Positions 26,388 to 64,000 of a stretch of 64,000 nucleotides of DNA are shown here, piece by piece. The first letter of the stretch is position 1. The number at the start of each line of letters is the position of its first letter. The notes beneath the pieces are model-generated. The model was not told where the DNA came from, did no database searches, and worked only from the letters and a program-made list of their open reading frames with translations. The stretch covers positions 286,481 through 350,480 of the forward strand of contig PBCF01000002.1 in NCBI GenBank assembly GCA_002716945.1, written 5' to 3'. Both the position numbers and the translations under genes were made by a program. Source of the DNA: Gammaproteobacteria bacterium (lineage in GTDB: Bacteria > Pseudomonadota > Gammaproteobacteria > GCA-002705445 > GCA-002716945).

Positions 26388-26458
26388 TATAATATGAATT
26401 TCAATATTACAAATTCATGTATAATAGAAAAATATATAATTGATGAAGATAATATATT

Positions 26459-27481: not shown

Positions 27482-27625
27482 ATAAAATATTTAATAAATC
27501 CAATAAAAAAAATTATTTTAAATCATAACATCCTATCAATTTCATTTATAACAGGAAATCATCCTAATAATAAAATATTAGAAAACAAGGATGATGTAAT
27601 TAATATCTATTTTAGATAAAGTTGT

Positions 27626-44347: not shown

Positions 44348-45327
44348 AAATATTAATAACAGGTGGATTAGGATTTGTTGGAAGTAATTTAGTAGAATAT
44401 CTATTAAAGTATAAAAATATAAAGAAAATTATCATAGTTGATAACTTCTCATCTTCGTCAATTCAATATATAGAAAAATTTACTAAATATAAATTCTTTA
44501 AATCATATAATCATTACAAAAAATCTATATCTAAAGTAGAAATTATTAAAGCAAATATAAATAATTTTAATATAGCTAAAAAAATTACAAAAAACATTGA
44601 CTGTATAATTCATCTAGCAGCAGAATCTGGTATAGACAAATCTATTACAGATCCATTAAATGCTTTTAATGTTAATGTTGTTGGTACATTTAATTACCTT
44701 GAAGCAGCTAGAATAAATAAAGTTAAACAATTTATTTTGGCTTCTAGTGGAGCAGTATTTGGTAATCAAAAACCACCATTTAAAGAAATATATGAAAGAA
44801 ATCCAATATCACCATATGGGTCAAGCAAACTAACAGCTGAAACTTTTTGTCAAACATATGGTATGACGTTTAAAATACAAACAACAATTCTTAGATTTAG
44901 CAATGCTTATGGAAAATATTCTAAACATAAAAATAGTGTAATAGCTAAATTTATTAATAATATTATAAATAGTAAACAGATTGTAATAAACGGCAATGGC
45001 AAGATAACAAGAGATTATATATATGTTGAAGATATTTGTTCAGCTATTTATAAATGTTTACAAAATAAGAAAAAATCTACTATTTACCATGTATCAACAA
45101 ATAAAGAAACGTCATTAAATGATTTAATAAAAAAAATAGAGCATACATTTAATATAATATTAAATTCCCCGTTACAGATTAAAAAAAAATATGGAAAAAA
45201 TCGTTTGGGTGATATGAAAAGTAATTCTCAGTCAAATAATAAAATTAAAAAAGAAATGAACTGGAGTCCTAAAACTAACCTTAATCAAGGTTTACTAAAG
45301 ACCTTAGAATGGTTTATATTAAATTAA
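44344..45327 (+). CDS. NAD-dependent epimerase/reductase
   Basis: MKILITGGLGFVGS, HLAA, PYGSSK, RFSNAYG, TRDYIYV. Confidence 0.85.
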   Translation: MKILITGGLGFVGSNLVEYLLKYKNIKKIIIVDNFSSSSIQYIEKFTKYKFFKSYNHYKKSISKVEIIKANINNFNIAKKITKNIDCIIHLAAESGIDKSITDPLNAFNVNVVGTFNYLEAARINKVKQFILASSGAVFGNQKPPFKEIYERNPISPYGSSKLTAETFCQTYGMTFKIQTTILRFSNAYGKYSKHKNSVIAKFINNIINSKQIVINGNGKITRDYIYVEDICSAIYKCLQNKKKSTIYHVSTNKETSLNDLIKKIEHTFNIILNSPLQIKKKYGKNRLGDMKSNSQSNNKIKKEMNWSPKTNLNQGLLKTLEWFILN

Positions 45328-49134: not shown

Positions 49135-50981
49135 TGTGTGGTATTTGCGGTTATATAAGTTTAAAAGATAATCATAATTTAGATAATCATGCAATAAATA
49201 ATATGGTTAATACTATGCATCATCGTGGTCCCGATGAAGACGGGTATTATAAAAATAATTATGTTAATTTTGGAATGAGAAGATTAATTATTATAGATAA
49301 AGAAAATGGATCTCAACCAATTATCTCAAAAAATAATGAAACAGTAATAATTATGAATGGAGAAATATTTAACTACAAAGAACTTAGAAATATGTTAATT
49401 ACTAATCATAATTCAAAATTCAGAACAAACTCAGATACAGAAGTATTATTGGAAATGTATAAAAATTATGGGACACAAGCAATTAAATATTTAGATGGTA
49501 TGTTTTCATTTGCAATATATGATAGTAAAAAAGATTTAATATGGATTGCTAGAGATAGATTTGGTATAAAACCACTTTATTATTATTATGATGATAAACA
49601 ATTAATATTCGGATCTACTATAGATTCAATCATTGAATCTAAAAAAATTAAAGCTAAAATAAATAATACTTCTGTACAATTATATCTATTACTATCATAT
49701 GTACCATCACCTTTATCAATATATAATAATATTTATAAATTATTACCTGGTCATGAAATTTTTATAAAAAATAAGAAAATAAAAATACAAAAATATTGGG
49801 ATATAAATGAATATATTGATATTAAAAAAGATACAGATGTTAATAATAAATTTGAAAACTTACTTAATTCGTCTGTATTAAAACACTCAGTATCCGATCA
49901 ACCTGTAGGTACATTTCTAAGTGGCGGGCTTGATAGTTCAGTAATAACTAAAAAATACAAATCTCTTAATCACAATAATTTTAATTCATACACTGCTGAT
50001 TTTGATAATAAAAAACATGATGATTCTGTATTTGCAAAAATAGTTGCCAATAAACTAGACATAAAACATCATAATTATAAAATTAACAGCAATGATTTTT
50101 TACCTATAATAGATGAATTAATGGAATACATTGATGAGCCGGTATACGATTCAGCCATGGTTCCTTCATATATACTATCAAAACAAGCTAAGGACGATAA
50201 TTTAAAAGTTCTATTAGCTGGAAATGGAGCTGATGAAATATTAGGCGGCTATAAAAGACATTATAATCAGTTTCCTGATTTTTTAAAAGGTTCGTGTTCA
50301 TCAATCAGTGAAGACGTACTAAACTATTTATCTAAAATGAAATTATTAAGTTTTCATAAACTATTACAATTGAAATATAAATTTATTGGTTATGCCATTA
50401 CATTTTCTGGAATTAATTTAGAAAGTTATAAAATATTAACAAAAAATTGTAATTTTTATACTTTAGAAAAGCAACTATCTAATTATTTTAGTAATAATGA
50501 TAATAAAAATATTTCTAATTTAAAAAAATTAATGATTAGAGATTTGAAAACATATTTAGTAGATAATGGATTAAGTATACTTGATAAAACTACAATGGCC
50601 ACATCAATAGAAGGAAGAGTACCATATTTGGACCATAAATTAGTAGAGTATCTAATTTCTTTAGATGATAGTGTTTATTTAAGTAATAATTATAAAAACT
50701 CCAAATCATTGCTTAGGAATTTAGCAAAAAAGAATAATTTAAAAGAAATCACTCAACGAAATAAAATTGGATTTAATCACCCATTAAACGGAGTAATAGA
50801 TAATAATCATAATCTTAATAAGATAAAAAAAACTATATTAAGTGCAAAGCATATACTTAATGAATTTATTAACTACGATCAAATAAATATTATTTTAGAT
50901 AATTATAAAAAAGAAAATAATGAGAATATTATGAATTTATATATCTTAGCAACTTGGGTTAATAATAAATGTTATCAATAA
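49134..50981 (+). CDS. asnB: Glutamine-hydrolysing amidotransferase, asparagine synthase family (probable sugar amidotransferase)
   Basis: MCGICG, HRGPD, NGEIFN, RDRFGIKPL, LSGGLDSS, GADE, EGRVPYLD. Confidence 0.92.
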   Translation: MCGICGYISLKDNHNLDNHAINNMVNTMHHRGPDEDGYYKNNYVNFGMRRLIIIDKENGSQPIISKNNETVIIMNGEIFNYKELRNMLITNHNSKFRTNSDTEVLLEMYKNYGTQAIKYLDGMFSFAIYDSKKDLIWIARDRFGIKPLYYYYDDKQLIFGSTIDSIIESKKIKAKINNTSVQLYLLLSYVPSPLSIYNNIYKLLPGHEIFIKNKKIKIQKYWDINEYIDIKKDTDVNNKFENLLNSSVLKHSVSDQPVGTFLSGGLDSSVITKKYKSLNHNNFNSYTADFDNKKHDDSVFAKIVANKLDIKHHNYKINSNDFLPIIDELMEYIDEPVYDSAMVPSYILSKQAKDDNLKVLLAGNGADEILGGYKRHYNQFPDFLKGSCSSISEDVLNYLSKMKLLSFHKLLQLKYKFIGYAITFSGINLESYKILTKNCNFYTLEKQLSNYFSNNDNKNISNLKKLMIRDLKTYLVDNGLSILDKTTMATSIEGRVPYLDHKLVEYLISLDDSVYLSNNYKNSKSLLRNLAKKNNLKEITQRNKIGFNHPLNGVIDNNHNLNKIKKTILSAKHILNEFINYDQINIILDNYKKENNENIMNLYILATWVNNKCYQ

Positions 50982-51781
50982 TATGCCCATGTTATAATTC
51001 AGAAACTCATATAGTAAGATTGAGTGACTCATTATTATCACAAATAGAAACTACAAAGCCATATGAAATAATTTTTATTGATGACGGATCAAGTGATAGA
51101 ACATTAGAATTATTACATTCCCATTCAATATTATTTAAAAATAAAAATATTGACATAAAAATAATAACTCAATCACATAAAGGGCCTGGATCTGCAAGAA
51201 ATTTAGGAATAAAAAATTCAAAATATGAATATATTGCATTTATAGATTCAGATGATATTTGGTATAAAAATAAAATCAATGAAACAATTAATATAATTAC
51301 AAAATATGGTAATGAATATAATACCTTTGTCCATGATGAAATATATAAAAAATCAAATGGAGAATCACTAAAAATTACAAGCGGCATTCTCATATCACAG
51401 AATGTGAGTGAATCTTTATATAAAAGAAATTGTCTCTCTACTTCGGCAACTATAATTTCTAAAAAGATATTAGTTGATACAGGAGGTTTTGATGAATCAT
51501 TAATGTCTAGTCAAGATTATGATCTATGGTTAAAAATATCATCAAAAATGAAACTTTATAAAATTAATAAAGTATTAGGAGAATATATTGAGTCTGAAAA
51601 TAGTATTACATCTAAATATTATTTATATAGATGTTTTGATCAATTAAAAATTGCAATTAGATATAAGAATTTTGTAAATTTTCATATTTTTTTAATAAAA
51701 GTATTAAAAATTATATTTAGTAAACAATGGATTTATGGTTTATCAAATATTTTTACAAATAAAAAAGGACATAATTATTAA
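50969..51781 (+). CDS. Glycosyltransferase family 2
   Basis: SIICPCYN, IDDGSSD, GPGSARNLG, FIDSDD, QDYDLW. Confidence 0.92.
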   Translation: MLSIICPCYNSETHIVRLSDSLLSQIETTKPYEIIFIDDGSSDRTLELLHSHSILFKNKNIDIKIITQSHKGPGSARNLGIKNSKYEYIAFIDSDDIWYKNKINETINIITKYGNEYNTFVHDEIYKKSNGESLKITSGILISQNVSESLYKRNCLSTSATIISKKILVDTGGFDESLMSSQDYDLWLKISSKMKLYKINKVLGEYIESENSITSKYYLYRCFDQLKIAIRYKNFVNFHIFLIKVLKIIFSKQWIYGLSNIFTNKKGHNY

Positions 51782-52469
51782 TAATTTAATAATTTTTATT
51801 TTAGTAGGAGGTTTTGGTACAAGACTTAAGACTGTTGTGTCTAATATTCCAAAACCAATGGCTCCAATCAATAACAAACCATTTCTAGATTATAAAATTG
51901 ATCATTTTAGAAATTATTTTCCAAACAATCAAATAATTCTTTTGACTTATTATTTATCTAATTATATTGAAAATTATTACAAAGACTATATAGATATAGT
52001 GTGCATTAAAGAAGATGAACCATTAGGCACAGGTGGAGCATTAAAAAATGCAATACAAACATTAGATCTAAAAAATAATCAGCCTATAATTCTTACGAAT
52101 GGAGATACATACATTAAACCAAACTATCAAGACTTTATTAATTATAATGGAGATATACGCATTATGTGTAGCTACAAAGAAAATATTGATCGTTATGGCA
52201 CTGTTGGTATTAATAATAATATTATTGAAAAATTTTCTACTAAATCAAAATCTAATAATTCATATATAAACACAGGATGTTATTTTTTTAAAAAATTATC
52301 ATTTATTAAAAGTATAAATAAGAAGAAATTTGCTATTGAAGATGAATTTGAAAAAATGATAAAAAAAGAAGAACTTGGAGCATATGTATATGATGATATA
52401 TTTATAGATATTGGTATTCCTGAGGATTATAAATTATTACAAAGAGAGATTAATGAATATGAAAAATAA
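51735..52469 (+). CDS. HddC-like sugar-1-phosphate nucleotidyltransferase (start uncertain)
   Basis: LVGGFGTRL..PKPMAPI, PLGTGGA, NGDTY, FIDIGIPEDY. Confidence 0.85.
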   Translation: MVYQIFLQIKKDIIINNLIIFILVGGFGTRLKTVVSNIPKPMAPINNKPFLDYKIDHFRNYFPNNQIILLTYYLSNYIENYYKDYIDIVCIKEDEPLGTGGALKNAIQTLDLKNNQPIILTNGDTYIKPNYQDFINYNGDIRIMCSYKENIDRYGTVGINNNIIEKFSTKSKSNNSYINTGCYFFKKLSFIKSINKKKFAIEDEFEKMIKKEELGAYVYDDIFIDIGIPEDYKLLQREINEYEK

Positions 52470-53829
52470 AAACTTTATTGTAAAAAAAACAGACACAATT
52501 TTAACAGCACTTGAAAAAATTGAAAAAAATCATATGGGTGCAATTTTTATTGAAGATAAGTCTAAAATAATTGGAATAGCAACCGATGGTGATATTAGAA
52601 GAGCTTTAATGAAAAAAAGTGATATGAGTCAGCAAATAAGCAAAATTATAAATAAAAAATATGTATATCTTTATGAAAAAGATGCTACTAAAGAACATAT
52701 TCTAAAGTTATTGGATACAAGAATTAAAATAATTCCAATATTAGATAATCAACATAAATTATTATCTATTGTTACTGAAAAGAATATAAATTGGAATGAA
52801 AATGAAAAAATTATTTCAAAATCTAAATCACCAGTAAGAATTAGTTTTGCTGGTGGTGGTACAGATTTAACAACATATTTTTATGAAGAATCTGGTATAG
52901 TATTAAATGCTACAATTAATAAATTTACTCATGCTGTACTCGAAAAAAGAGATGATAATAAAATTCAAATATATTCAAATGATTTAAATAAAAAAATAAC
53001 TTTTAAAAATATTCAAGAAATTAAAATAAATGGGGAAATGGATTTAATCAAGTCGGTTATATTAAAATTAGAACCAAATTTTGGATTTAACCTTGTAACA
53101 TATAGTGATGTACCACCAGGTTCAGGGTTAGGAGGTTCGGCAGTTCTTTTAAGTACAATAATTGGTGTATTCAATAATTTTCGTGAAAATAAATTTAATG
53201 ATTATGAAATTGCTGAATTAGCATTTCATGCTGAACGTGTAGTACTTGAATTGTCAGGAGGTTGGCAGGATCAATATGCCACAGTTTTTGGAGGTTTTAA
53301 CTATATAGAATTTAAAAATAATGAAAATATTGTTAATCCTTTAAGAATTACAGATGATATTAAAAGTGAATTAGAAGATTCATTAATATTATGTTATAGC
53401 GGAATTAATCATGATTCAGCAAAGATCCATGATGATCAAAAAAAACAAATGAAAAATAAAAAGCAAAAAGAATTTGCTACAAAATCAAAAGAGATTGCTT
53501 ATCAAATGAAATCAAGATTACTTAAAGGGAAATTAGATGATTTTGGAGAACTACTGGGTAAAGCTTGGAAAATTAAAAAGAAATTTTCATCAAAAATAAC
53601 TACACCATTCTTAGATGAAATTTATGATTATGCTATAGAAAACGGCGCATTAGGAGGTAAATTATTAGGAGCAGGCAATGGGGGATATTTTTTATTTTAT
53701 GTTCCAACTCAAAATAAACTTAACCTAATAAATTCTTTAAAAAACAAAGGTTTATCAATAGAAACTTTTACTTTTGATAATGTAGGACTTAGATCTTGGA
53801 TAACAAAAAGAAAACATGATCATAGATAA
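52453..53829 (+). CDS. CBS-domain-fused GHMP sugar kinase (HddA-like)
   Basis: N-terminal CBS (TDGDIRRAL), then PVRISFAGGGTD, PGSGLGGS, GGWQDQYA, GGKLLGAGNGG; start at ATG 52453 or 52459. Confidence 0.88.
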   Translation: MNMKNKNFIVKKTDTILTALEKIEKNHMGAIFIEDKSKIIGIATDGDIRRALMKKSDMSQQISKIINKKYVYLYEKDATKEHILKLLDTRIKIIPILDNQHKLLSIVTEKNINWNENEKIISKSKSPVRISFAGGGTDLTTYFYEESGIVLNATINKFTHAVLEKRDDNKIQIYSNDLNKKITFKNIQEIKINGEMDLIKSVILKLEPNFGFNLVTYSDVPPGSGLGGSAVLLSTIIGVFNNFRENKFNDYEIAELAFHAERVVLELSGGWQDQYATVFGGFNYIEFKNNENIVNPLRITDDIKSELEDSLILCYSGINHDSAKIHDDQKKQMKNKKQKEFATKSKEIAYQMKSRLLKGKLDDFGELLGKAWKIKKKFSSKITTPFLDEIYDYAIENGALGGKLLGAGNGGYFLFYVPTQNKLNLINSLKNKGLSIETFTFDNVGLRSWITKRKHDHR

Positions 53830-55702
53830 ATACAAAATTGGAACAGCACATATATTTATCATTGCTGAAATAGGCATGAACCATAATGGTAATTATAAAA
53901 ATGCTACAAAATTAATTGATCAAGCCATCAAAGCAGGAGCAGATTGTGTAAAATTTCAAATGAGAAATTTAAATGAATTGTATAGTAAATCAGCATTGGA
54001 TATAACATCGACTGATTTAGGAACACAATACACATTAGGTTTGTTAAAGAAATTTGAATTAAGTTTTGATGATTATAAACGTTTATCAGAATATTCAAGA
54101 AAAAAAGGTATTTTATTTTTATGTACACCTTGGGATAAATCTAGTGTTGATAAACTTGAAAAATTAAATGTCAAAGCATATAAAATTGCATCAGCTGATT
54201 TAACAAATATTGATCTTATTGATTATATAATATCTAAGAAAAAACCAATTATTTTATCTACCGGAATGAGTAATGAGGATGAAATTAAAGATACAATAAA
54301 ATTTCTAAAAACTAAAAAGGCAGTGTTTTCTATTTTACATTGTAATTCAACATATCCAGCTCCTTTAAAAGATATAAATCTAAATTATATAAAAAATTTA
54401 GAGAAATATAATGTACCTGTTGGTTATTCTGGACACGAAAGAGGGATTGCTACATCTTTAGGGGCAGTAGCAATAGGAGCTAAAATAATAGAACGACATA
54501 TAACTTTAGACAGAAATATGGAAGGACCAGATCATGCTGCGAGTCTTGAATTTGATGATTTTGAATTATTAGTTAAGGGAATCAGAGAGCTTCAAAAATC
54601 TATAGGTGTTCAAAACAAAAGGTCAATGACACAAGGTGAAATGATTAATAGAGAGAACTTATCTAAAAGTATTTTTGCAAAAAAATCAATTAAAAAAGGA
54701 GAGCAAATTAAAAAAGATATGTTAGAAATTAAAAGTCCAGGGCAAGGACTATCACCACAATATTTAACAAAAATAATTGGGAAAAAACCCTGTAAAGATA
54801 TAGAAAAAAATAAACCTATTTTCATTACAGATATATCAGGAAAAATAAATTCAAAAAAGATATATAAATTTAATAGAAAGTGGGGTATACCTGTTAGGTT
54901 CCATGATTTAAAAACTTTATTAAATAATTTAAAACCTTCGTTAGTTGAATTCCACTTAAGTTTTAATGATTTGAACGAGGATATTTCTAAATTAATCGCA
55001 AAAAAATATAATTGTGAATTTGTAGTCCATGCTCCAGAATTATTTAAAAATGACCATTTATTGGATTTATGTACGCCAAATAAAAAGTATAGAAATGAAT
55101 CAATAAATAATTTACAAAATGTTATTGACTTAACTGTTAAATTAAAAAATTATTTTATTAATATAAATAAACCTAAAATTATTATTAATGCAGGCGGTTT
55201 CACAAGAGATGATTTTCTAGATCCGGCTTACAAAACTGAATATTACCAAAATTTAATAAATTCATTGAATAAATTAAAGTCCAATGAAGTTGAAATAATT
55301 CCACAAAATATGGCTCCTTTTCCATGGCATTTTGGGGGACAAAGGTATCAAAATTTGTTAGTTTTACCCGAAGAAATAATAAATTTTTGTAAATCTACTG
55401 GTATGAGAATATGCCATGATATTTCACATTCTTATATGACTTGCAAAAAATATAAACTCGATCATATTGATTTTACAGAAAAAATAGCACCACTAGTAAC
55501 TCATTATCACATTGCTGATGCAATTGGCATTGACGGTGAAGGATTACAAATAGGTATTGGGGATATAAACTTTAAGAAAATATTACAAATAATTAATAAA
55601 TATTCACCAGAAGCATCTTTTATACCGGAAGTTTGGCAAGGACATAAAAATAATGGTGAAGGATTTTGGATTGCTTTCAAAAAATTGGAAAATAAACTTT
55701 GA
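53816..55702 (+). CDS. NeuB-family synthase + SAF + xylose-isomerase-like TIM-barrel fusion, copy 2
   Basis: IAEIGMNHNG, HCNSTYP, GYSGHE, GPDH, KSPGQG, then VVHAPE, PWHFGGQ, DISHS, HIADA, PEVWQGH. Confidence 0.88.
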   Translation: MIIDKYKIGTAHIFIIAEIGMNHNGNYKNATKLIDQAIKAGADCVKFQMRNLNELYSKSALDITSTDLGTQYTLGLLKKFELSFDDYKRLSEYSRKKGILFLCTPWDKSSVDKLEKLNVKAYKIASADLTNIDLIDYIISKKKPIILSTGMSNEDEIKDTIKFLKTKKAVFSILHCNSTYPAPLKDINLNYIKNLEKYNVPVGYSGHERGIATSLGAVAIGAKIIERHITLDRNMEGPDHAASLEFDDFELLVKGIRELQKSIGVQNKRSMTQGEMINRENLSKSIFAKKSIKKGEQIKKDMLEIKSPGQGLSPQYLTKIIGKKPCKDIEKNKPIFITDISGKINSKKIYKFNRKWGIPVRFHDLKTLLNNLKPSLVEFHLSFNDLNEDISKLIAKKYNCEFVVHAPELFKNDHLLDLCTPNKKYRNESINNLQNVIDLTVKLKNYFININKPKIIINAGGFTRDDFLDPAYKTEYYQNLINSLNKLKSNEVEIIPQNMAPFPWHFGGQRYQNLLVLPEEIINFCKSTGMRICHDISHSYMTCKKYKLDHIDFTEKIAPLVTHYHIADAIGIDGEGLQIGIGDINFKKILQIINKYSPEASFIPEVWQGHKNNGEGFWIAFKKLENKL

Positions 55703-55723
55703 AAATTATATACTCAAAATCAT

Positions 55724-56455
55724 ATGTTTAATGTATCACAAAAAAAAATATTAATTACAGGCGGATCTAGCGGTATTGGCGAAGCGTTGGCAAAAGGTTT
55801 TAGTGATGCAAATGCAATAGTGGCCATCATAGATATTCAAAATCCAATAAAGTCCAATAATATAGATTTTATTAAATGTGATTTAAGTAAATTGAAATCT
55901 ATTGATCTAGCTTTAAATAAATACAAAAAAAAATATTTTTGCCCTGATGTTATTATAAATTGTGCAGGCGTTGCAATATCAAAAGAATCTCACAACTATA
56001 GTCAAACAGACTGGCAAAACACAATTGATATTAATTTATCAGCTATTTTTTATATTTGTAAACAGATTGGCAAGATAATGATTAAGTCAAAAATTAAAGG
56101 CAGCATAATCAATATTACAAGTATAGGAGCTGAACAAGGCTTTCCGAATAATCCTGCTTATCAAGCTTCAAAAGGTGCTGTTAAACAATTAACAAAGGCT
56201 ATGGCTGTTGATTGGGGGCAATATGGTATACGTGTGAATAATATAGTACCAGGTTATACAAATACTCCAATGAACAAGAAAAGTTGGAATAACAAAAAAC
56301 TCCGCAAGGCTAGGTCAGATAATACATTATTAAAGCGATGGGCTAATCCAAATGAAATGGTTGGACCATCTATATTTTTAGCCTCGGATGCATCTAGTTA
56401 TATTACAGGAATAGATTTAATTGTAGACGGCGGATGGTTAGCTAAAGGTATTTAA
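55724..56455 (+). CDS. SDR oxidoreductase (gluconate 5-dehydrogenase-like)
   Basis: TGGSSGIG, NCAG, YQASK, VDGGW. Confidence 0.88.
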   Translation: MFNVSQKKILITGGSSGIGEALAKGFSDANAIVAIIDIQNPIKSNNIDFIKCDLSKLKSIDLALNKYKKKYFCPDVIINCAGVAISKESHNYSQTDWQNTIDINLSAIFYICKQIGKIMIKSKIKGSIINITSIGAEQGFPNNPAYQASKGAVKQLTKAMAVDWGQYGIRVNNIVPGYTNTPMNKKSWNNKKLRKARSDNTLLKRWANPNEMVGPSIFLASDASSYITGIDLIVDGGWLAKGI

Positions 56456-56458
56456 TTA

Positions 56459-57172
56459 ATGAATAAGAATGTTATTGCAATTATATTGGCAAGAGGTGGA
56501 TCAAAAGGAATACCAAATAAAAATATATTAAATTTTTGCGGAAAACCATTAGTAGCATGGTCTGTCATTCAAGCTAAACTTACAAAAGAAATTGATGATG
56601 TATATATAAGTTCTGATTCAGATAAAATTTTAGAAATAGCAGCAAACTATGGTGCAAAAAAAATTAAAAGACCAAATGAAATATCAGGTGATGAAGCAAA
56701 ATCAGAAGAAGCAATATTGCATGCATTAAATATCATTGATAGAAACTGTGAATGTATAATTATGTTAGAGCCAACAGCTCCATTAAGACAACCAGATGAC
56801 TTATCAAACGCAATAAAGCTATTTTATAAAAATAAATGGGATTCAGCATTTTCAAGTGCTGAATTACAAGATTTTTTAATTTGGAAAAAAGATGAAAACA
56901 ATAAACTAAAAGGGCTAAACTATGATTATAAAATACAAGAGCCTAGACAATTAAGAGAAACAGAATATGTAGAAAATGGTGCAATATATATGTTTAAGCC
57001 AGATATAATAATTAATGAATCAAATAGATTTGGCGGTGAAATTGGAATGATTCCCAATAAGTTTTGGCAGTCATTTGAAATAGATGAAAAAGAAGATTGG
57101 GAGTTTTTAGAGTTAATATTTAATCATTATTTACTCAATGAATATAATAAACGAATGATAGGAAATAAATAA
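56459..57172 (+). CDS. CMP-ulosonate synthetase (NeuA family), copy 2
   Basis: ILARGGSKGIPNKN, SSDS, LEPTAPLR, ENGAIY, EIDE.ED. Confidence 0.9.
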   Translation: MNKNVIAIILARGGSKGIPNKNILNFCGKPLVAWSVIQAKLTKEIDDVYISSDSDKILEIAANYGAKKIKRPNEISGDEAKSEEAILHALNIIDRNCECIIMLEPTAPLRQPDDLSNAIKLFYKNKWDSAFSSAELQDFLIWKKDENNKLKGLNYDYKIQEPRQLRETEYVENGAIYMFKPDIIINESNRFGGEIGMIPNKFWQSFEIDEKEDWEFLELIFNHYLLNEYNKRMIGNK

Positions 57173-57173
57173 T

Positions 57174-58169
57174 ATGAAACCAAATAGAGTTGTTTATCAA
57201 AATGGTAAATATGTTAGCGAAAAAGATGCAAAAATATCAATATTTGATTCTGCATTAATGTGGGGCGACATGGTCTTTGAAATGACCAGGTCTTTTAATC
57301 AAAAGCAACATAAATTAAGAGAACACCTAGAGAGAATGTACACAGGTATCAGAATATTAAGAATACCTATGAAGCTTACAATTGATGAACTTGAAGAAAT
57401 ATGCTACGAAACAATAGAAAAAAATAAAGATGCATTTGAACCACATGATGAACATAGATTATTAATTAATGTTAGCCGAGGACCTTTGGGGATATATTCG
57501 ACAGTTTTTGATAACAAAATGGAACCAACGGTTATAGTTGCAGATTTCCCTCTAAAATGGACTGTGGCTGGCATGGATGAATTAATAGACGAGGGGATTA
57601 ATGCTGTTGTCGTAAGTCAAAGAGCTATACCTGCACATTTAATGGAACCTAAAATTAAAAATAGAAGTAGAATGTGGTATCAAATGGCAAATATAGAAGC
57701 TTCATTATTTTCAGGAAAAAATAATTGGGCATTATTACTAGATACTGATGGATTTATTGCTGAAGGAACTGGTGATAATATATTTTTTGCTAAAAATGGA
57801 AAAGTTTATACTCCTGAACCTAGAAATATATTAATTGGAATTACAAGAAATTATATTTTTGATCTTTGCAAAGAGTTAAACATTGAATGCATTGAAAAAA
57901 ATATTGAAACATATGATGCTTATACAGCTGACGAGTCATTTATGACAGCAACTCCATTTTGTTTGCTCCCTGTAACGAAAATAAATGGCTTAGATATTGG
58001 AAATGGTAAGCTTGGTCCAATAACTCAAAAATTACATGATCAATGGAGTAAAAACGTTGGATTAGATATATTTAAACAAATTAAAGATTACTCAAAAGAA
58101 TGTATTAATTTAAATAAAGACCAACCTACACCATATGTATTTAAAACACAAAACAATGAAAATGATTGA
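57174..58169 (+). CDS. Class IV PLP aminotransferase (branched-chain/D-amino-acid type)
   Basis: GDMVFE, HLER, PKIK (PLP Lys), EGTGDN, LIGITR, ADESF. Confidence 0.88.
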   Translation: MKPNRVVYQNGKYVSEKDAKISIFDSALMWGDMVFEMTRSFNQKQHKLREHLERMYTGIRILRIPMKLTIDELEEICYETIEKNKDAFEPHDEHRLLINVSRGPLGIYSTVFDNKMEPTVIVADFPLKWTVAGMDELIDEGINAVVVSQRAIPAHLMEPKIKNRSRMWYQMANIEASLFSGKNNWALLLDTDGFIAEGTGDNIFFAKNGKVYTPEPRNILIGITRNYIFDLCKELNIECIEKNIETYDAYTADESFMTATPFCLLPVTKINGLDIGNGKLGPITQKLHDQWSKNVGLDIFKQIKDYSKECINLNKDQPTPYVFKTQNNEND

Positions 58170-58701
58170 GTTTAAAAATTTAATTGGAGCTAAAGTAAAT
58201 TTAATTGATCTAGACCTAAAATATCTTGATGATATGTTTGAATATTCGAGTGACAAAAGACTGTATGAGCATTTGGAATTTGAACCTCATAATAACAAAA
58301 AAGATACCGAAAAGTATTTAATTAATTTAATAAAAAGATCAAACGAACAAAATGCACATTGGTGGTTTATTCAACTTAAAGATACATTAAAAGTCATTGG
58401 TTCTTTTGGTATACATGATATTAATATGAACAGAAGTTCATGTGAAATTAGCTATGCGCTATCACCAAAATATTGGGGAGAAAAAATATTCTCTGACGTA
58501 ATGAAATCTGTATTAGATTACCTTATTGATGATTTGTCCTTTCATAGAATAATGGTTACTACTGCAAAAAAAAATATTAGATCAATTGGCGCAATAAAAA
58601 AATTTAACTTTGAACAAGAAGGTATGCTAAAAGACTTTTACCATGACTCAAATAATAATCGATTTGATGCAGTAATTTATTCACTTGTACAAAAAACATA
58701 G
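58135..58701 (+). CDS. GNAT (RimJ/RimL-like) acyltransferase
   Basis: EISYAL..YWG, N.RS....KKFNF.QEG.L; true start probably the ATG near 58156-58162. Confidence 0.85.
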   Translation: MYLKHKTMKMIEFKNLIGAKVNLIDLDLKYLDDMFEYSSDKRLYEHLEFEPHNNKKDTEKYLINLIKRSNEQNAHWWFIQLKDTLKVIGSFGIHDINMNRSSCEISYALSPKYWGEKIFSDVMKSVLDYLIDDLSFHRIMVTTAKKNIRSIGAIKKFNFEQEGMLKDFYHDSNNNRFDAVIYSLVQKT

Positions 58702-59929
58702 AGCTATAATATTGAATAAATATTTGAATAAAATAAATAAGATTAAAAGCAAACATGCTAAATTTTCTCATAAAGAAACTGATTATGTATTAAATGTTCT
58801 GGATAATAACAATAATGAAAACTATATTGTTAAATTAGAAAAGAAATTCTCACAAATATTTAAACGAAAATATTCTATTGCTTGTAATTCCGGAACATCT
58901 GGATTACATGCAAGCTTATCTGCTTTAAATCTAAAGCCGGGAGATGAGGTTATCGTTCCTGGGCTTACTGTAGTAATGGATGCTTATGCTGCAATACATC
59001 TTGGTGCAACTCCTATTTTTGCTGATGTTCACGAAGATACCTTTTTAATTACTGCAAAATCTATTGAGGAAAAAATTTCTAAAAAAACTAAAGCGGTAAT
59101 AGTAGTATCATTACAAGGATTACCAGTAGATATTGATCCTATAATGAAATTATCAAGAAAACATAAATTTTATGTTATTGAAGATAATGCCCAAGATTTT
59201 AGTGGTGTCTACAAAAAGAGAATATCAGGCTGTACTGGACATATTGGTATATGGAGTTTTGAAAACAAAAAACATTTAAGCGGGGCAACAGAAGGTGGAA
59301 TGATCTGTACAAATAATAAGAAATTAGCAACTAATATTAGAAAATTTGCTGGCATAGGTTATAAAAACATGACTGCAACTGGTGGGAGAACTTCTTTGGC
59401 TATATCACAAGTCCAAGATCCGAACTATTGCAGATTTGATACCATTGGTCTAAATTATCGTATGCCGAATATCGTTGCGGCAGTATGCCTTGGTCAATTG
59501 GAATCATATAAATCAATCATCTCTAGAAGGCAAAAAGTTGCAGCAATATTTAGAGAAGCAATCAATGGTTGTGATTGGTTGATTGAGCAAGGTAATCCAG
59601 ATAAATATACGCATACACACTATACATTTGCTGTGCGCTATTTAGGTAAAGAGCATTTCGGTGTCCCATGGAAAACATTCTATAATGAGTATAAAAAATT
59701 AGGAGGTGATGGGTTCTATGGAGCATGCGTTTGTCCTCATCTAGAACCATCAATTCTTAAATATATAAAGATGAGTAAGTATAAACATAAAATTATAATA
59801 CCAATAGCTGAAAAAATTCAAAAGCAAATAATGCAATTTAAAACTAACTACAGAAATCTTAAAACTGCAGAAAAAAAAGCAACCATCCTTAAAAAACTAA
59901 TTAATAAGTTCAATAAGAAGTATGTCTAA
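58685..59929 (+). CDS. DegT/DnrJ/EryC1 PLP aminotransferase
   Basis: NSGTSGLH, EDNAQ, SFENKKHL, EGGM, GLNYRM. Confidence 0.88.
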   Translation: MYKKHRAIILNKYLNKINKIKSKHAKFSHKETDYVLNVLDNNNNENYIVKLEKKFSQIFKRKYSIACNSGTSGLHASLSALNLKPGDEVIVPGLTVVMDAYAAIHLGATPIFADVHEDTFLITAKSIEEKISKKTKAVIVVSLQGLPVDIDPIMKLSRKHKFYVIEDNAQDFSGVYKKRISGCTGHIGIWSFENKKHLSGATEGGMICTNNKKLATNIRKFAGIGYKNMTATGGRTSLAISQVQDPNYCRFDTIGLNYRMPNIVAAVCLGQLESYKSIISRRQKVAAIFREAINGCDWLIEQGNPDKYTHTHYTFAVRYLGKEHFGVPWKTFYNEYKKLGGDGFYGACVCPHLEPSILKYIKMSKYKHKIIIPIAEKIQKQIMQFKTNYRNLKTAEKKATILKKLINKFNKKYV

Positions 59930-60737
59930 AAGTTTAAAATTTGGAATCATCCAAGGTCGTCTTACAAATTCTCCACCTGGTTGTTTGCAATGGTTTCCAC
60001 AAAATGAATGGCAAGATGAATTTCACAAAGCGTCTGAGCTTGGTATAAATTTCATTGAACTGATTGCTGAAATTAACCATAATCCTAATAATCCAATCTG
60101 GACAGATCAAGGTTTAAATAAAATAAAACAGCTAACTTTAAATAACAATTTATCTCTACACAGCTTATGTAATGATTATATTATTGAACACAATATTAAT
60201 GACGATAAGGTAATAGAACAAAATCTAAATCTATTAAAACAATGTTCTAAAATCGGTATAAAAAAATATATAATGCCATTCTTTGAAAAAAGTGAAATAA
60301 ACTCAAAAAACTATAATGAATTTATATCAACGATAACTATGATTGCAGATGAAGCTGAAAAATTAAATATTTCCTTATCTTTAGAAACTATACTAACTGG
60401 GAAAGAATTATTAAATTTATTAGAACTAGTAAATCATAAGAATATTAAAATTGTTTACGATACAGGTAATAGAGTCGCTTTTGGTCATGATCTTTCTGGA
60501 GATATTGAATTGTTATCACAAAACATTAACCATATACATATCAAAGATAAAAATATTAAAAATGATAATGTATTATTAGGAACTGGATTAGTTAATTTCC
60601 ATGACGTTTTTCAATCACTTATAAAAATAAAATACAAGGGGTCTTATGTTTTTGAGACAACTCGTGGTAAATACCCAATGAAAACTGCAGCATATAATAT
60701 GCAATTAGTTAACTTTTTTGTAGAAAATCTAACTTGA
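59922..60737 (+). CDS. Sugar-phosphate isomerase/epimerase (xylose-isomerase-like TIM barrel)
   Basis: GIIQGRL, LET, YDTGN, HIHIKD, LGTG, FET. Confidence 0.82.
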   Translation: MSKSLKFGIIQGRLTNSPPGCLQWFPQNEWQDEFHKASELGINFIELIAEINHNPNNPIWTDQGLNKIKQLTLNNNLSLHSLCNDYIIEHNINDDKVIEQNLNLLKQCSKIGIKKYIMPFFEKSEINSKNYNEFISTITMIADEAEKLNISLSLETILTGKELLNLLELVNHKNIKIVYDTGNRVAFGHDLSGDIELLSQNINHIHIKDKNIKNDNVLLGTGLVNFHDVFQSLIKIKYKGSYVFETTRGKYPMKTAAYNMQLVNFFVENLT

Positions 60738-60773
60738 ATACTATTTTATCTCTAATGGTTTATAATATAAATA

Positions 60774-61604
60774 ATGAATATATCATCTAAATTTAATTTA
60801 TCTAATGATATTGCTGTTGTTACCGGTGGAGCAGGATTACTTGGTTTAAAACATTGTGAAGCGCTACTTGAAGCTGAGTCTAAGGTAATTATAATGGATT
60901 TAGATAAAAAAGCCCTTGCTAAAGCAGCTGATATATTTACAGATAAATATAATGGACAGTTTTTGGCTTTAGATGTAGACGTTACGAAAGAAAAACAAAT
61001 TATTTTAGCAAAAGAAAAAATTTACAAGAAATTTAATTCTTATCCAACAATATTAATTAATAATGCAGCAATAGATACAAAATATGAAACCGATAACATA
61101 GTTAATAAAACTAGATTAGAAGAATTTGATCTTGAGCAATGGAACATTGAAATTTCTGTTGGCTTATCTGGAGCTTTTTTATGTTGTAAACATTTTGGAA
61201 TTGAAATGTCTAAAAAAAGCAGAGGAGTTATTCTTAACATTTCATCGGACCTGGGTCTAATTGCACCTAGTCAGTTCTTGTATGAAGATAAACAGTTATC
61301 AAATGAAAATCAATCCGTGAAACCTATTACATACTCTGTAATTAAACATGGTCTGATAGGGCTAACTAGGTACATGTCTACATATTGGGCAAAAAACGGA
61401 GTCAGATGCAATGCCTTAGCACCTGGAGGTGTCTATAATGAGCATGATAAAAATTTTGTAAATAAGCTCTCTAATTTAATTCCTATAGGAAGAATGGCTA
61501 GAATTGATGAATATAAATCAACAATAGTTTTTATGTGTAGTGACGCGAGTAGTTATATGAATGGCGCTGTTCTAGTCATGGACGGCGGAAGAACTACTTG
61601 GTAA
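60774..61604 (+). CDS. SDR oxidoreductase (PtmA-like)
   Basis: TGGAGLLG, NNAA, YSVIK, NALAPGGV, DGG.T.W. Confidence 0.88.
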   Translation: MNISSKFNLSNDIAVVTGGAGLLGLKHCEALLEAESKVIIMDLDKKALAKAADIFTDKYNGQFLALDVDVTKEKQIILAKEKIYKKFNSYPTILINNAAIDTKYETDNIVNKTRLEEFDLEQWNIEISVGLSGAFLCCKHFGIEMSKKSRGVILNISSDLGLIAPSQFLYEDKQLSNENQSVKPITYSVIKHGLIGLTRYMSTYWAKNGVRCNALAPGGVYNEHDKNFVNKLSNLIPIGRMARIDEYKSTIVFMCSDASSYMNGAVLVMDGGRTTW

Positions 61605-61627
61605 TTTAATTAAAAAATATCTAAATT

Positions 61628-63448
61628 ATGAAATCTTTAATTCTTACAAAAAGATTGGTATTTCCATGGTTATATAGAAATTTTTTATTATTTGGAAGAA
61701 AATCGTATCTTAAAAACAAATCAAATCATACTGTAGTACAAGAAGATTTATTTATGGCTAAAAACTACAGAAATTGTGATCATGAAGCTTCATGCAGTGA
61801 AGATTATTTAATTAATAAGTTAACAGATAATAAAAATTTTAAATTTTTAATTGATTGGGCGGGTGAGAGATATACTAATTATGTTGTTGGTAAGCATTTA
61901 ATATTTGAAGCTAAAAAGATTTTTAAATCATTTAGATATGCTGAATTAATTAGTGAAAAATATACTTTAAAGAATAATGTATATCTTTACCCTGATAATT
62001 TTGATATTTCTATATATAATATATTGAGACAAAAATTAACAAAAAAAATAAAACTTCCATATCTGTCATTAATTTATATGACTTTAAGAAGTGTGTTTAA
62101 GTCTGTATATTTTAATTTTAAAACATTATTATATCCTGAGTTTCTACTAATAAAATCCTGTCAAAGATCAAAGTTAGGGATCAACAAATATAAATTTTGT
62201 ATTCATATAGATGATGGATTGAAAGATCTGGCAATTCATCCACATGATTTATTTGTAATAAATAAAAATATTACTAAAAAAGATATATTATTTGTTAGTT
62301 TATCTAAAACAAAGCAAAAATGGATATCCCATTATTTAAAAAATAACTATAATGTTTTAGATATTAATAAAGTCAATAATTATATATCTAAATCTATGTA
62401 TTTTTCTAACATATACTGTAAATCATTTAAATTTAGATTTAAACTTTTTTGGCTTGGTATCAAATATCCTTGGCTATCATCTTCAATATTTAATATTTTA
62501 AAACAAAAAATCTTATGGGATATATTTCACGAATTAATCAAAACAAAATGTATTATAAGAATTATGACAGCTGAAGATATAACAGCATCAGTCGTACATA
62601 AATACAATAATGTGGACACGCTTTTTCTTTATTTATCAACAACAGAAAAAATAATACAATCTGATATAAAAAAAGGTAAGAGTAATGATCATGATTATAC
62701 TCATATGATATCAAAATACTCAGTTAGCAACGTTGTTTCGAATAATTGGTTAAAAAAACTTGAAAATAATATTGATAAATATATTGATATAGGTCCATTA
62801 TTTTCAGATTTAATACACGAGGCTTATAAAAACAAACAAATAATATTCAAGAAAATTAATATAACGAATAATAATCCTATAATTACTTTCCTTGATCATA
62901 CAGCAGGACACCATGGTGTAATGAATTTTAAAGCTTATAAAGATTTTCTAGAAAGCTTTCTAAAATTATCTAAAAAAAATTTAAATATAAATTATATATA
63001 TAAGAGTAAAAAATCTATTTCATCCATGAAAGAATACTTTGATAATGATATTATTGACTTGATTGAGGTTATTCGTAGTCGCAATAATTGTTGGTATGCT
63101 AATGACTATAAACTCAGTTCATATCAAATATGTGGAGTAGCAGATTTAATTGTTTCTGCACCAATGTCATCTGTAATATTTGAAGCATTCTGTGGTAATA
63201 AAAAAATAATTTCGTATGATAGTACATCAAAGTATAAAGATTTTGATTTTATTTTAAAAAAAGTTCCATATCTACACGCATATACTCATGAACAATTAGA
63301 GAAATTAATTGATCATTGGCTCTTGCAAACAGATAATAATTATTTTAAAAATTATATGAATAAATATATTAAACCGCTGATTGGATTAAATTGTAATAAT
63401 CATGGTAAAATTAAACAATTTAATGAATTTTTAGAAAATATAAATTAA
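61628..63448 (+). CDS. Surface-carbohydrate biosynthesis protein (PFTS-motif-like), candidate transferase
   Basis: C-terminal DLIVSAPMSSVIFEA...ISYD resembles the PFTS-motif polysaccharide proteins (variant PMSS); family call tentative. Confidence 0.5.
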   Translation: MKSLILTKRLVFPWLYRNFLLFGRKSYLKNKSNHTVVQEDLFMAKNYRNCDHEASCSEDYLINKLTDNKNFKFLIDWAGERYTNYVVGKHLIFEAKKIFKSFRYAELISEKYTLKNNVYLYPDNFDISIYNILRQKLTKKIKLPYLSLIYMTLRSVFKSVYFNFKTLLYPEFLLIKSCQRSKLGINKYKFCIHIDDGLKDLAIHPHDLFVINKNITKKDILFVSLSKTKQKWISHYLKNNYNVLDINKVNNYISKSMYFSNIYCKSFKFRFKLFWLGIKYPWLSSSIFNILKQKILWDIFHELIKTKCIIRIMTAEDITASVVHKYNNVDTLFLYLSTTEKIIQSDIKKGKSNDHDYTHMISKYSVSNVVSNNWLKKLENNIDKYIDIGPLFSDLIHEAYKNKQIIFKKINITNNNPIITFLDHTAGHHGVMNFKAYKDFLESFLKLSKKNLNINYIYKSKKSISSMKEYFDNDIIDLIEVIRSRNNCWYANDYKLSSYQICGVADLIVSAPMSSVIFEAFCGNKKIISYDSTSKYKDFDFILKKVPYLHAYTHEQLEKLIDHWLLQTDNNYFKNYMNKYIKPLIGLNCNNHGKIKQFNEFLENIN

Positions 63449-63450
63449 AT

Positions 63451-64000
63451 ATGAATAATATTGAAACTTATAAAAATAAATATAAAAATAATGGTTATTT
63501 TATCGTAAAAGATGTTTTTGATAAAAATACTATCAACAAAGTTATATCTGAAATTGATGTAGCACAAGATGTGCAAAAATATACAGATAAAAAAGGAAAT
63601 TTAAGAAGAATAGAGAGATTATATGACAAAGGGATCTATCTAAAAAAAATTAATTCATCTGTTCTTTCTATATTAAAAAAAATTTTTGATAAAGATTTTA
63701 CAATTTTTAAAGATAAATGTAATTCAAAACCACCTGGTGGCGAAGGTTTTTTTGCTCACTATGATGGTATATTCTTGTTTAAAAATAATAATGGTAAAAA
63801 AGAGAAGGGTTGGTATAAATATACTGATTTTTTTATTAATGTTTTAATAGCATTAGACGATTGTAATAAAGAAAATGGAACGATTGAAATCTCAAATGCT
63901 CATTCTGGTGATTTTGATCAGCTTTTATTAAATACAAAACAAAATGGAACTCCAGATATACTAAATAATATTGAGCAAAGTATTGATTTTGAACCAATTG
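63451..64000 (+). CDS. PhyH-family Fe(II)/2-oxoglutarate dioxygenase (3'-truncated by window edge, absent from ORF track)
   Basis: Manual translation: MNNIETYKNKYKNNGYFIVKDVF...FKDKCNSKPPGGEGFFAHYDG...IALDDCNKENGTI; HxD facial motif; open to the window end. Confidence 0.85.
   Translation, partial: MNNIETYKNKYKNNGYFIVKDVFDKNTINKVISEIDVAQDVQKYTDKKGNLRRIERLYDKGIYLKKINSSVLSILKKIFDKDFTIFKDKCNSKPPGGEGFFAHYDGIFLFKNNNGKKEKGWYKYTDFFINVLIALDDCNKENGTIEISNAHSGDFDQLLLNTKQNGTPDILNNIEQSIDFEPI

Follow-up and report, generated by a model that had tools for sequence, protein, structure and literature searches.

A conserved cassette of HddA- and HddC-like enzymes and a NeuB–TIM-barrel fusion as a candidate route to a heptose-based, possibly ten-carbon ulosonic acid

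The 64,000-nucleotide stretch analysed here (the window; positions 286,481 to 350,480 of contig PBCF01000002.1, assembly GCA_002716945.1, Gammaproteobacteria bacterium) ends in a block of twelve open reading frames (ORFs) at 51735-64000, all on the plus strand, with neighbours touching or overlapping. At the head of the block, a nucleotidyltransferase and a kinase that most resemble enzymes of guanosine diphosphate (GDP)-heptose synthesis precede a NeuB-family synthase that is fused to a metallo-TIM barrel. We propose that this cassette makes a cytidine monophosphate (CMP)-activated 3-deoxy-2-ulosonic acid built on D-glycero-D-manno-heptose, hence with ten carbons, and tailored after condensation. 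We hold this reading tentatively, at a probability of roughly 0.4. In more general terms, the gene content indicates that the product is probably an unusual, possibly ten-carbon, amino-substituted acidic sugar of the cell surface. Ulosonic acids such as 3-deoxy-D-manno-octulosonic acid (Kdo) and sialic, legionaminic (Leg) and pseudaminic (Pse) acids cap bacterial surfaces and flagella, and decide recognition by hosts, phages and immune lectins. To our knowledge, all described routes to these acids yield eight or nine carbons.

Domains were called by Pfam and NCBIfam profile searches, in which family absence was judged at E <= 0.001. Together with the ORF map, these searches confirm the twelve genes and domains named in the original prediction for this DNA (Table 1). 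The NCBIfam models for the GDP-heptose pathway were NF049969, NF049965, TIGR00441 and TIGR00213. HddA and HddC are the best-matching NCBIfam models, over their full length, for the kinase and the nucleotidyltransferase, respectively. Both proteins score below the NCBI equivalog cut-offs, and we use "HddA-like" and "HddC-like" for a family resemblance, not for membership. The third protein carries NeuB, SAF and AP_endonuc_2 domains in one chain, which places it in the fused NeuB-SAF-TIM family of the Serratia and Leptospira type. This fusion of NeuB and TIM barrel is present in all 120 of the 120 database homologues listed (52-64% identity), whose source names include Sulfurimonas, Arcobacter and Campylobacterota. 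Within the phylum the family is patchy, because only two of 400 other genomes, sampled evenly, encode a full-length fusion; a third (G318) holds a fragment at a contig end.

Gene neighbourhoods were compared across 83 loci, in which the window proteins were placed by tblastn at a coverage of at least 50%. A metagenome scan found 569 stretches that encode a relative of the fusion, of which the best 80 were kept, and a single-protein scan of genome contigs gave three loci. The 63 loci with at least 1.6 kb of upstream sequence fall into two types, with no mixed cases. In type A (44 loci), a CBS-HddA-like kinase lies directly 5' of the fusion (orthologue identity 41-67%), and the genes run in the order nucleotidyltransferase, CBS-kinase and ~630-residue fusion, the nucleotidyltransferase being directly 5' of the kinase in most loci. 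In type B (19 loci), a ~750-residue protein carries a CBS pair at the N-terminus of the synthase, without the kinase, the heptose genes or the free-standing TIM barrel of the window (TIM2); the cytidylyltransferase alone is a constant partner (9/9 loci). The type A order is kept in loci whose fusion is only 47-62% identical, including relatives named Sulfurimonas and Arcobacter and the 8-Mb genome of locus L037, whose fusion is 100% identical to a protein that NCBI labels Bradyrhizobium daqingense. Judged by this gene order, the NeuB fusion and the genes for the kinase and the nucleotidyltransferase form a conserved trio and are not neighbours by chance.

Further genes travel with the trio. 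Among 20 well-flanked type A loci, the second short-chain dehydrogenase/reductase (SDR) of the window, SDR2, and another SDR are each found in all 20, TIM2 in 15, the nucleotidyltransferase in 14, the DegT aminotransferase in ten and the class IV aminotransferase in four. A SIS protein and the cytidylyltransferase each occur in 13, and a GmhB-like HAD protein in eight, all by tblastn, which undercounts the cytidylyltransferase (Pfam also finds it in L058 and L080). SDR2 is the most constant type A accessory gene (45-63% identity). The constant partners of the fusion are a CMP-ulosonate-type cytidylyltransferase and genes for Wzx, Wza/Wzc, glycosyltransferases and Maf-like proteins.

A maximum-likelihood tree of 81 fusions places the window protein within type A, in a group with those of L040, L041 and L042 (support 100). 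The type B fusions, 22 rows in all, share a single branch (one change, SH-aLRT 92) whose neighbour is the type A locus L092. L039 was excluded from the tree for an internal stop. In this locus (L039:4485-6374) the in-frame stop splits the fusion gene into ORFs of 198 and 409 residues, which may reflect a broken gene or an assembly error. Another locus, L080, has a second, short NeuB-family gene (L080:6245-7105; 287 residues, without SAF or TIM) between the nucleotidyltransferase and a flippase.

The link to heptose comes from related cassettes. A SIS_2 gene lies immediately 3' of the fusion in four of the six Pfam-scanned metagenome type A loci (L054, L058, L085 and L095); in L080 it lies upstream, beside the nucleotidyltransferase, and L039 has no SIS_2 gene. 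On the gmhA model (cut-off 209), the five main SIS proteins reach 161-208 bits, and a second, more divergent SIS protein of L095 reaches 68. The GmhB of L085 passes its cut-off (176 against 150 bits), and in L037 the nucleotidyltransferase is fused to a GmhB-like HAD domain. By these matches, the fusion gene of other taxa is flanked by genes for all four enzymes of a GDP-heptose-type pathway. The genome studied here (1.09 Mb, six contigs, ~29% G+C) has a GmhA-like gene (C4:110394-110975; 253 bits, cut-off 276) and a GmhB-like gene (C1:114733-115275; 162 bits, cut-off 178), both slightly under the cut-offs, and HldE (362 bits, cut-off 345) and HldD (377 bits, cut-off 275), both above them; all four lie away from the block. 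The cassette therefore has a supply of heptose 7-phosphate and a bisphosphate phosphatase at hand. The original prediction had raised a heptose substrate as a speculation and had named gmhA and gmhB as genes to look for elsewhere in the genome; the idea now has comparative support, and candidates for both genes have been found. The genome of L037 also holds a second, more distant HddA-like gene (121 bits), ~4 kb from a GmhA-like gene (166 bits); this pair (G056:C1:6300054-6304876, L136 and L137), ~360 kb from the cassette, may serve another route to heptose.

The block fits none of the Neu, Leg and Pse gene sets, as had been predicted. Its twelve proteins give no match to Epimerase_2 (NeuC), the 4,6-dehydratase family, SIS (GmhA) or HAD (GmhB), which bears out the absences first read from the sequence. 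Of the N-acetylneuraminic acid (Neu5Ac) set NeuC-NeuB-NeuA, NeuC is missing from the block and the synthase stays below the NeuB_NnaB equivalog cut-off (346.1 against 399.65 bits). Of the Leg set (LegB, C, H, G, I and F), neither the nucleoside diphosphate (NDP)-hexose 4,6-dehydratase nor the NeuC-type hydrolase/epimerase is found in 51735-64000. Of the Pse set (PseB, C, H, G, I and F), PseI (267.6 against 340.25 bits) and PseF are below their cut-offs, PseC reaches 173.5 against 423.5 bits, and there is no PseB or PseG. The window fusion is also distinct from the long, Kdn-linked form of the fusion (Kdn, the 3-deoxynonulosonic acid of D-glycero-D-galacto configuration): it has no N-terminal extension and belongs to the type A clade. 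Dehydratases and a NeuC do occur upstream in the window (23340-24506, 33617-34630, 37063-38994 and 42144-45327); the only NeuC of the window, at 23340-24506, is part of a separate, Leg-like module. In the seven Pfam-scanned type A loci, neither a dehydratase nor NeuC lies inside the cassette, and dehydratase-family genes appear only at the outer edges.

The three described bacterial nonulosonate routes free the aldose from a nucleotide sugar by a dedicated hydrolase before a NeuB-type condensation. Here, the fused TIM barrel is a candidate for this step. The 52 TIM domains that were aligned share invariant His, Asp and Glu residues, the His and Asp among them being H380, H405, D535, H538 and H565 in the numbering of the protein, and the AlphaFold model of the domain has a predicted local distance difference test score (pLDDT) of 92.4. 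Its nearest Foldseek match is MJ1311, described as "tagatose 3-epimerase-like" (TM 0.69), with endonuclease IV of M. tuberculosis (5zhz) third (0.68) and many ketose 3-epimerases among the matches. A sequence search against solved structures returned MJ1311 alone (E 8e-4). TIM2 is clearly nearer to the epimerase side: among solved structures it matches D-allulose/ketose 3-epimerases and UlaE best (E ~1e-5).

The simplest pathway to give every conserved gene a role would start with housekeeping GmhA, which would convert sedoheptulose 7-phosphate to D-glycero-D-manno-heptose 7-phosphate. An NDP-heptose would then arise through three enzymes: the HddA-like kinase, which the CBS pair would regulate as the entry step, housekeeping GmhB, and the transferase that resembles HddC. 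The PtmE-like enzyme of the Leg-like module also carries a CBS pair, and both this pair and that of the kinase score best on KpsF/GutQ (NCBIfam); by this likeness, CBS pairs appear as a mark of the entry enzymes of ulosonate routes. The fused barrel would cut a phosphoester, either that of the nucleotide before condensation, in place of NeuC, LegG or PseG, or that of the terminal phosphate afterwards. The NeuB domain would join the free aldose to phosphoenolpyruvate (PEP). Kdn (C9H16O9) is formed from PEP and mannose; extended by one carbon, mannose becomes D-glycero-D-manno-heptose, from which a C10H18O10 acid would follow. SDR1 would oxidise a hydroxyl of the resulting keto-deoxy acid. Oxidation, epimerisation and transamination of the acid would fall to two sets of enzymes, SDR1 plus the class IV aminotransferase on one side and DegT plus TIM2 plus SDR2 on the other, and the GNAT protein would acylate an amine. 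The cytidylyltransferase would form the CMP-sugar, which the PFTS-motif protein or a nearby glycosyltransferase would transfer to a surface polysaccharide. The most specific version of this pathway, in which CBS-controlled GDP-heptose is formed, the barrel frees the heptose in place of NeuC/LegG/PseG, NeuB adds PEP and amination of the free acid by the SDR/aminotransferase pairs follows to give a ten-carbon, twice-aminated CMP-"deculosonic" acid, by a logic that differs from those of Neu, Leg and Pse, we consider unlikely to hold in every part.

Clues to the timing of amination come from the tailoring genes. These recur as two pairs: SDR1 is found next to the class IV aminotransferase, and DegT next to TIM2, the latter pair often together with a GFO-type oxidoreductase and GNAT. 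Both pairs are present in the window and in L041, save that TIM2 is missing in L041:2-9973. The pairs suggest oxidation and transamination of the finished acid, as in the route to 8-amino-3,8-dideoxy-D-manno-octulosonic acid (Kdo8N). While the original prediction had placed amination before NeuB, the KduD-like SDR/aminotransferase pairs make amination after condensation the most likely order. The same is hinted at in the type B locus L005, where an Fe-dependent alcohol dehydrogenase (Fe-ADH) and DegT stand beside the fusion. That locus (L005:6641-14992) encodes a cytidylyltransferase, the Fe-ADH, DegT, the CBS-NeuB-TIM fusion, a methyltransferase and a polysialyltransferase-family protein.

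Several observations weigh against a heptose-fed synthase with a nucleotide-releasing barrel. The kinase and the nucleotidyltransferase reach about half of the equivalog cut-offs of HddA and HddC. The fold matches of the fused barrel are tied between endonuclease IV and sugar epimerases, which leaves the choice between phosphoesterase and isomerase ambiguous. An hhalign comparison with E. coli Nfo gave a probability of 15% and covered the C-terminal half only (DxxH, His, Glu), and in the fused barrel a nearly invariant Gln takes the place of the first metal-binding Glu that is usual there, at the position that we take to be Nfo Glu145. If the barrel were instead a phosphatase of the condensation product, as proposed for Leptospira, heptose 7-phosphate would suffice as substrate and the kinase and transferase would be left without a role. 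G042 (98% complete, the only type B genome with a stated completeness) has a GmhA-like gene and no HddA-like gene, and the L005 genome, for which no completeness is given, has neither at E <= 1e-10. A GDP-heptose route is therefore not required for the fusion to work, as is also shown by the Kdn of Serratia. Finally, since type B is a single clade, the split between a kinase and a CBS pair on the synthase reflects approximately one evolutionary event and not many independent correlations. We had considered the split between a CBS pair on the kinase and one on the synthase as evidence of coupling and rate it as weak, both for this reason and because the type B CBS pairs resemble the kinase CBS (~22-35% identity) no more than they do the PtmE-like CBS (25-35%).

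The main rival to a heptose-fed synthase is that two sugars are made side by side, and GDP-heptose made independently of NeuB was among the refuting cases named in the original prediction. Here, NeuB-TIM and the cytidylyltransferase would use mannose, mannose 6-phosphate or GDP-mannose to form CMP-Kdn or a tailored relative with nine carbons, as in Serratia, and the HddA/HddC-like pair, GmhA and GmhB would make GDP-heptose; this heptose, maybe modified by the SDRs and TIM2, would enter the same polysaccharide as a heptose residue. Type B loci manage with the fusion and a CMP-synthetase (9/9), and the matching Serratia pair gives Kdn as described in PMC9000132. Self-contained hddC-gmhA-hddA operons for GDP-heptose exist in capsule and S-layer loci, and the family 2 glycosyltransferase (GT2) encoded directly 5' of the nucleotidyltransferase, here and in L040-L042, could use an NDP-heptose. 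Inheritance of the block as a unit, with type B having arisen about once, would also keep synteny without functional coupling. What makes this explanation somewhat unlikely in our view is the arrangement of the cassette: in four of six scanned type A loci the fusion separates the kinase from the GmhA-like gene, and the kinase has gained a CBS pair like those of ulosonate entry enzymes, which the canonical 338-position HddA lacks. Moreover, the tailoring enzymes resemble those that act on free keto-deoxy acids or ketoses (KduD, IolO, UlaE), whereas known modifiers of GDP-heptose are extended SDR and cupin enzymes, unlike those of the block. No GT9 heptosyltransferase is found in the seven Pfam-scanned type A loci, a weak point, as other glycosyltransferase families can transfer heptose.

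It is improbable, though in keeping with scores far under the equivalog cut-offs (HddA-like 291 of 600 and HddC-like 152 of 300 bits), that the kinase/transferase pair activates a hexose or hexosamine, with kinase and phosphatase bypassing a mutase, so that the product would be a new nine-carbon Leg- or Neu-like acid. The C. jejuni Leg route, which starts from a GDP-hexosamine and uses a CBS-nucleotidyltransferase and SIS (PtmF) and SDR (PtmA) helpers, offers a precedent, and SDR2 scores 104 bits on the PtmA model. Against a hexose stand the co-located SIS proteins, which at 161-208 bits come near the gmhA cut-off of 209, the co-located HAD protein that passes the GmhB cut-off, and a cassette without 4,6-dehydratase and hydrolysing 2-epimerase. 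Very improbable is a non-glycan role, in which the NeuB-family domain would serve a phosphonate or other small-molecule intermediate encoded next door. A module of PEP mutase, phosphonopyruvate decarboxylase, Fe-ADH and a B12-radical-SAM enzyme does lie right after the PhyH gene of the block, and such genes follow the cassette in L040 and L041 too. However, PEP mutase is nearby in only two of the 83 related loci, and the constant partners of the fusion are the CMP-ulosonate-type cytidylyltransferase and polysaccharide genes.

Table 1. Genes of the 51735-64000 block and its immediate neighbours, with profile matches (window coordinates unless stated otherwise).
Feature	Coordinates	Strand	Profile evidence and remarks
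GT2 glycosyltransferase	50969..51781	+	Glycos_transf_2, E 4.6e-29; immediately upstream of the block
HddC-like sugar-1-phosphate nucleotidyltransferase	51735..52469	+	NTP_transferase, E 7.5e-23; HddC 151.9 bits, cut-off 300
CBS-pair + GHMP kinase, HddA-like	52411..53829	+	CBS, GHMP_kinases_N, GHMP_kinases_C (Pfam); HddA 290.9 bits, profile 2-336 of 338, cut-off 600 (NCBIfam)
NeuB-SAF + xylose-isomerase-like metallo-TIM barrel, 628 aa	53816..55702	+	NeuB, E 9.5e-85; SAF; AP_endonuc_2, E 8.6e-21
Classical SDR (SDR1), KduD/GolD-like	55724..56455	+	adh_short_C2, E 7.5e-57; GolD/DthD 195 bits and KduD 175 bits, both under cut-off (NCBIfam)
CMP-ulosonate synthetase-like cytidylyltransferase	56459..57172	+	CTP_transf_3, E 1.5e-22; PseF 124.7 bits, cut-off 205.7
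Class IV (BCAT/DAAT-fold) aminotransferase	57174..58169	+	Aminotran_4, E 1.8e-45; recurrent accessory gene
GNAT N-acyltransferase	58135..58701	+	Acetyltransf_3, E 4.8e-20
DegT-family sugar aminotransferase	58685..59929	+	DegT_DnrJ_EryC1, E 1.4e-65
Free-standing xylose-isomerase-like TIM barrel (TIM2)	59922..60737	+	AP_endonuc_2, E 1.9e-26
SDR (SDR2), PtmA-like	60774..61604	+	adh_short_C2, E 6.7e-36; PtmA 104 bits, cut-off 350
PFTS-motif protein	61628..63448	+	no Pfam match; PFTS model 46 bits, cut-off 100
PhyH-family dioxygenase	63451..64000, continues to 64197	+	PhyH 29.8 bits, cut-off 22
Phosphonate module	L003:611-8368 = G000:C4:350610-358367		just past the window end, directly after PhyH

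The accessory genes recur in changing combinations. The class IV aminotransferase has relatives of 58-66% identity in ten metagenome loci, and of 93% in L041; SDR1 adjoins it in L060 and L065. DegT orthologues (48-52% identity) occur in L058, L062, L069, L071, L080 and L081, with TIM2 adjacent in five of them and no TIM2 match in L069. TIM2 itself is 53-57% identical in L058, L071, L080 and L081, and GNAT co-occurs with the DegT/TIM2 sub-module in L058, L062 and L080. In the closest marine relatives the GT2 gene accompanies the cassette: a homologue of 52-53% identity lies directly 5' of the nucleotidyltransferase in L040, L041 and L042. The PFTS-motif protein has homologues of 37-39% identity at the same position in L040 and L041. 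As a lead only, its nearest protein-atlas cluster (0.98) has PFTS_polysacc in 52% of members, and its atlas neighbours belong to the PFTS_polysacc, LIC12162, Glyphos_transf and Capsule_synth families. We regard it as a candidate transferase or polymerase for the activated sugar.

Alignment of L041:2-9973 with window 50969-61604 shows a mosaic of identities: GT2, nucleotidyltransferase, kinase and fusion are 49-67% identical, and the next five genes, from SDR1 to DegT, 78-93%, with TIM2 missing. The pattern suggests that related marine lineages have recombined within the cassette. In a type B genome (L038, G042:C42; 6591-9185 and 3582-6592), the CBS-NeuB-TIM gene lies beside genes for Maf-like (MptE-like domain) and TPR proteins, a setting that is, by gene content, one of flagellin glycosylation rather than capsule.

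A long run of surface-polysaccharide genes begins near 13309, and the block lies at its far end. Surface-glycan genes occupy window 13309-64000 and L003:1-8368, ~59 kb or ~5% of the 1.09-Mb genome, and the G+C content drops to 22-26% across 20-52 kb, against ~29% for the contig. The region also holds several dehydratases, glycosyltransferases, a Wzy_C protein and an ABC exporter. Upstream of the block lies the Leg-like module (22190-30698), and the original title of "second ulosonic-acid module" was a fair one. It encodes a LegC-family aminotransferase (392 bits, cut-off 420), NeuC (405 bits, above 236) and NeuB (368 bits, cut-off 400), together with a PtmA-like SDR, a formyltransferase, a PtmE-like CBS-nucleotidyltransferase, a cytidylyltransferase and a class III aminotransferase. 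The last but two of these, the formyltransferase aside from its neighbours, is a hint that an N-formylated derivative may be made.

On the other side, the phosphonate module encodes a PEP mutase fused to a cytidylyltransferase (388 bits, against a cut-off of 320), a phosphonopyruvate decarboxylase (475 bits, cut-off 313), an Fe-ADH and a TagF-like transferase, interleaved with genes of a TupB/TupA-like ABC transporter. Its B12-radical-SAM enzyme is nearest to a P-methyltransferase family (225 bits, cut-off 575). The module appears to make a hydroxyalkylphosphonate, activated by a cytidylyl group and possibly methylated, for attachment to the glycan. The ORF of the PhyH dioxygenase, which had been counted with the block, extends 197 bases beyond the window end. 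In L041 the gene order is PFTS, PhyH, PEP mutase and decarboxylase; in L040 PFTS is followed straight by PEP mutase and PhyH is absent. Because of this order we assign PhyH to the phosphonate genes, and it probably belongs to the downstream module and not to the cassette.

If a NeuB-type synthase is indeed fed with a heptose, its product would found a new, ten-carbon class of ulosonic acids. Should the two sugars be made side by side, the result would still be a common cassette for a Kdn-type acid and GDP-heptose, and a function for a large fusion family. The cassette is widespread, and its occurrence in proteins labelled as from cultured Bradyrhizobium species, among them a strain of the Bradyrhizobium japonicum group whose fusion shares at least 89% identity with that of L037, makes either outcome testable at the bench. 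The claim of an undescribed system stands in part. The fusion family and its Kdn-linked branch are in print (2012, 2022), and the phylogeny and neighbourhoods, which the original prediction had proposed as a check, place the window fusion in type A, next to a sister clade that matches the Kdn-linked Serratia NeuB in architecture and layout; the type A, heptose-linked cassette is the unstudied variant. Among the papers that our literature searches reached, none describes a type A cassette with heptose genes, links nonulosonic acids to a GHMP kinase or uses the names of a ten-carbon ulosonic acid that were sought; no title listed deals with a joint HddA-NeuB pathway, and the listings on nonulosonic acids of Bradyrhizobium gave nothing relevant. 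A term search of the large phylogeny of nonulosonic acid (NulO) synthases in PMC8208679 gave no mention of fusions, isomerase domains or CBS in the text that it covered. Bradyrhizose, a bicyclic ten-carbon sugar, was considered and dropped, as no link to the cassette was found; PMC4743980 calls its genes unknown, and proposes an 11-gene cluster with a dTDP-glucose 4,6-dehydratase in photosynthetic strains.

Among known systems, the GDP-D-glycero-alpha-D-manno-heptose pathway (GmhA-HddA-GmhB-HddC) supplies the models that the cassette kinase and transferase match best, and related cassettes add GmhA-like and GmhB genes. The cassette differs in its scores of about half the cut-offs, in the CBS pair added to the kinase, and in gene placement: in this genome GmhA and GmhB lie away from the block, and in other taxa the genes flank a NeuB fusion. 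The CMP-Leg route of C. jejuni likewise proceeds from an NDP-sugar made with a CBS-bearing entry enzyme, through a freed aldose and a NeuB homologue, to CMP activation. However, it includes a 4,6-dehydratase, amination before condensation and release by a NeuC homologue, none of which is found in the block. In the Kdo8N route of Shewanella, KdnB (an Fe-ADH-type oxidase) and KdnA (an aminotransferase) oxidise and then transaminate an ulosonic acid that is already formed. The SDR/aminotransferase pairs of the block, and the Fe-ADH and DegT beside the type B fusion of L005, resemble this arrangement, although Kdo has eight carbons and the oxidoreductase families are others.

The closest genetic precedent is in Serratia marcescens, whose KL1 and KL2 capsule loci are described as opening with neuA and a 2241-bp neuB that has an extra sugar-phosphate isomerase/epimerase domain (Anderson et al. 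2022, PMC9000132). Deletion of neuB there removed sialic acid and capsule, and the acids were reported as Kdn and Neu5Ac at ~20:1. Both systems thus pair a NeuB-family synthase carrying a COG1082 domain with a CMP-synthetase in a surface-polysaccharide locus, and the Serratia genetics tie this pair to the non-aminated Kdn. The type B locus L098, in which wza, wzb, wzc, a cytidylyltransferase, the 746-residue fusion and wzx follow one another and whose protein has named close relatives in Klebsiella, is like the Serratia pair in layout (between wzc and wzx) and in ORF length (2241 bp) as given in PMC9000132. In contrast, the window protein belongs to the type A clade, lacks the N-terminal CBS pair and stands behind a CBS-kinase and a nucleotidyltransferase, in a block that adds SDRs, a second TIM barrel and two aminotransferases. 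The NulO synthase of Leptospira interrogans has a C-terminal domain homologous to phosphodiester-cleaving endonucleases, for which a phosphatase acting on a phosphorylated product was inferred (Ricaldi et al. 2012, PMC3438082). A C-terminal domain on a NulO-type synthase is what it has in common with the window fusion; the proposal, as set out there, differs in being a Neu5Ac route from a phosphorylated six-carbon sugar, without heptose genes. The product has its nearest parallel in Magnetospirillum gryphiswaldense, for which CMP-linked alpha-keto acids were reported that give a C10 marker fragment and carry two N-acetyl groups and an O-acetyl group (SugarBase, doi 10.64898/2026.04.20.719630). 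These acids come from mass spectrometry alone, with no gene cluster named in the part of the report that we draw on. Their backbone is one carbon beyond Leg and Pse and is of the kind that the block could make; if our reading is correct, the cassette would provide the first candidate genes for such C10 CMP-ulosonic acids.

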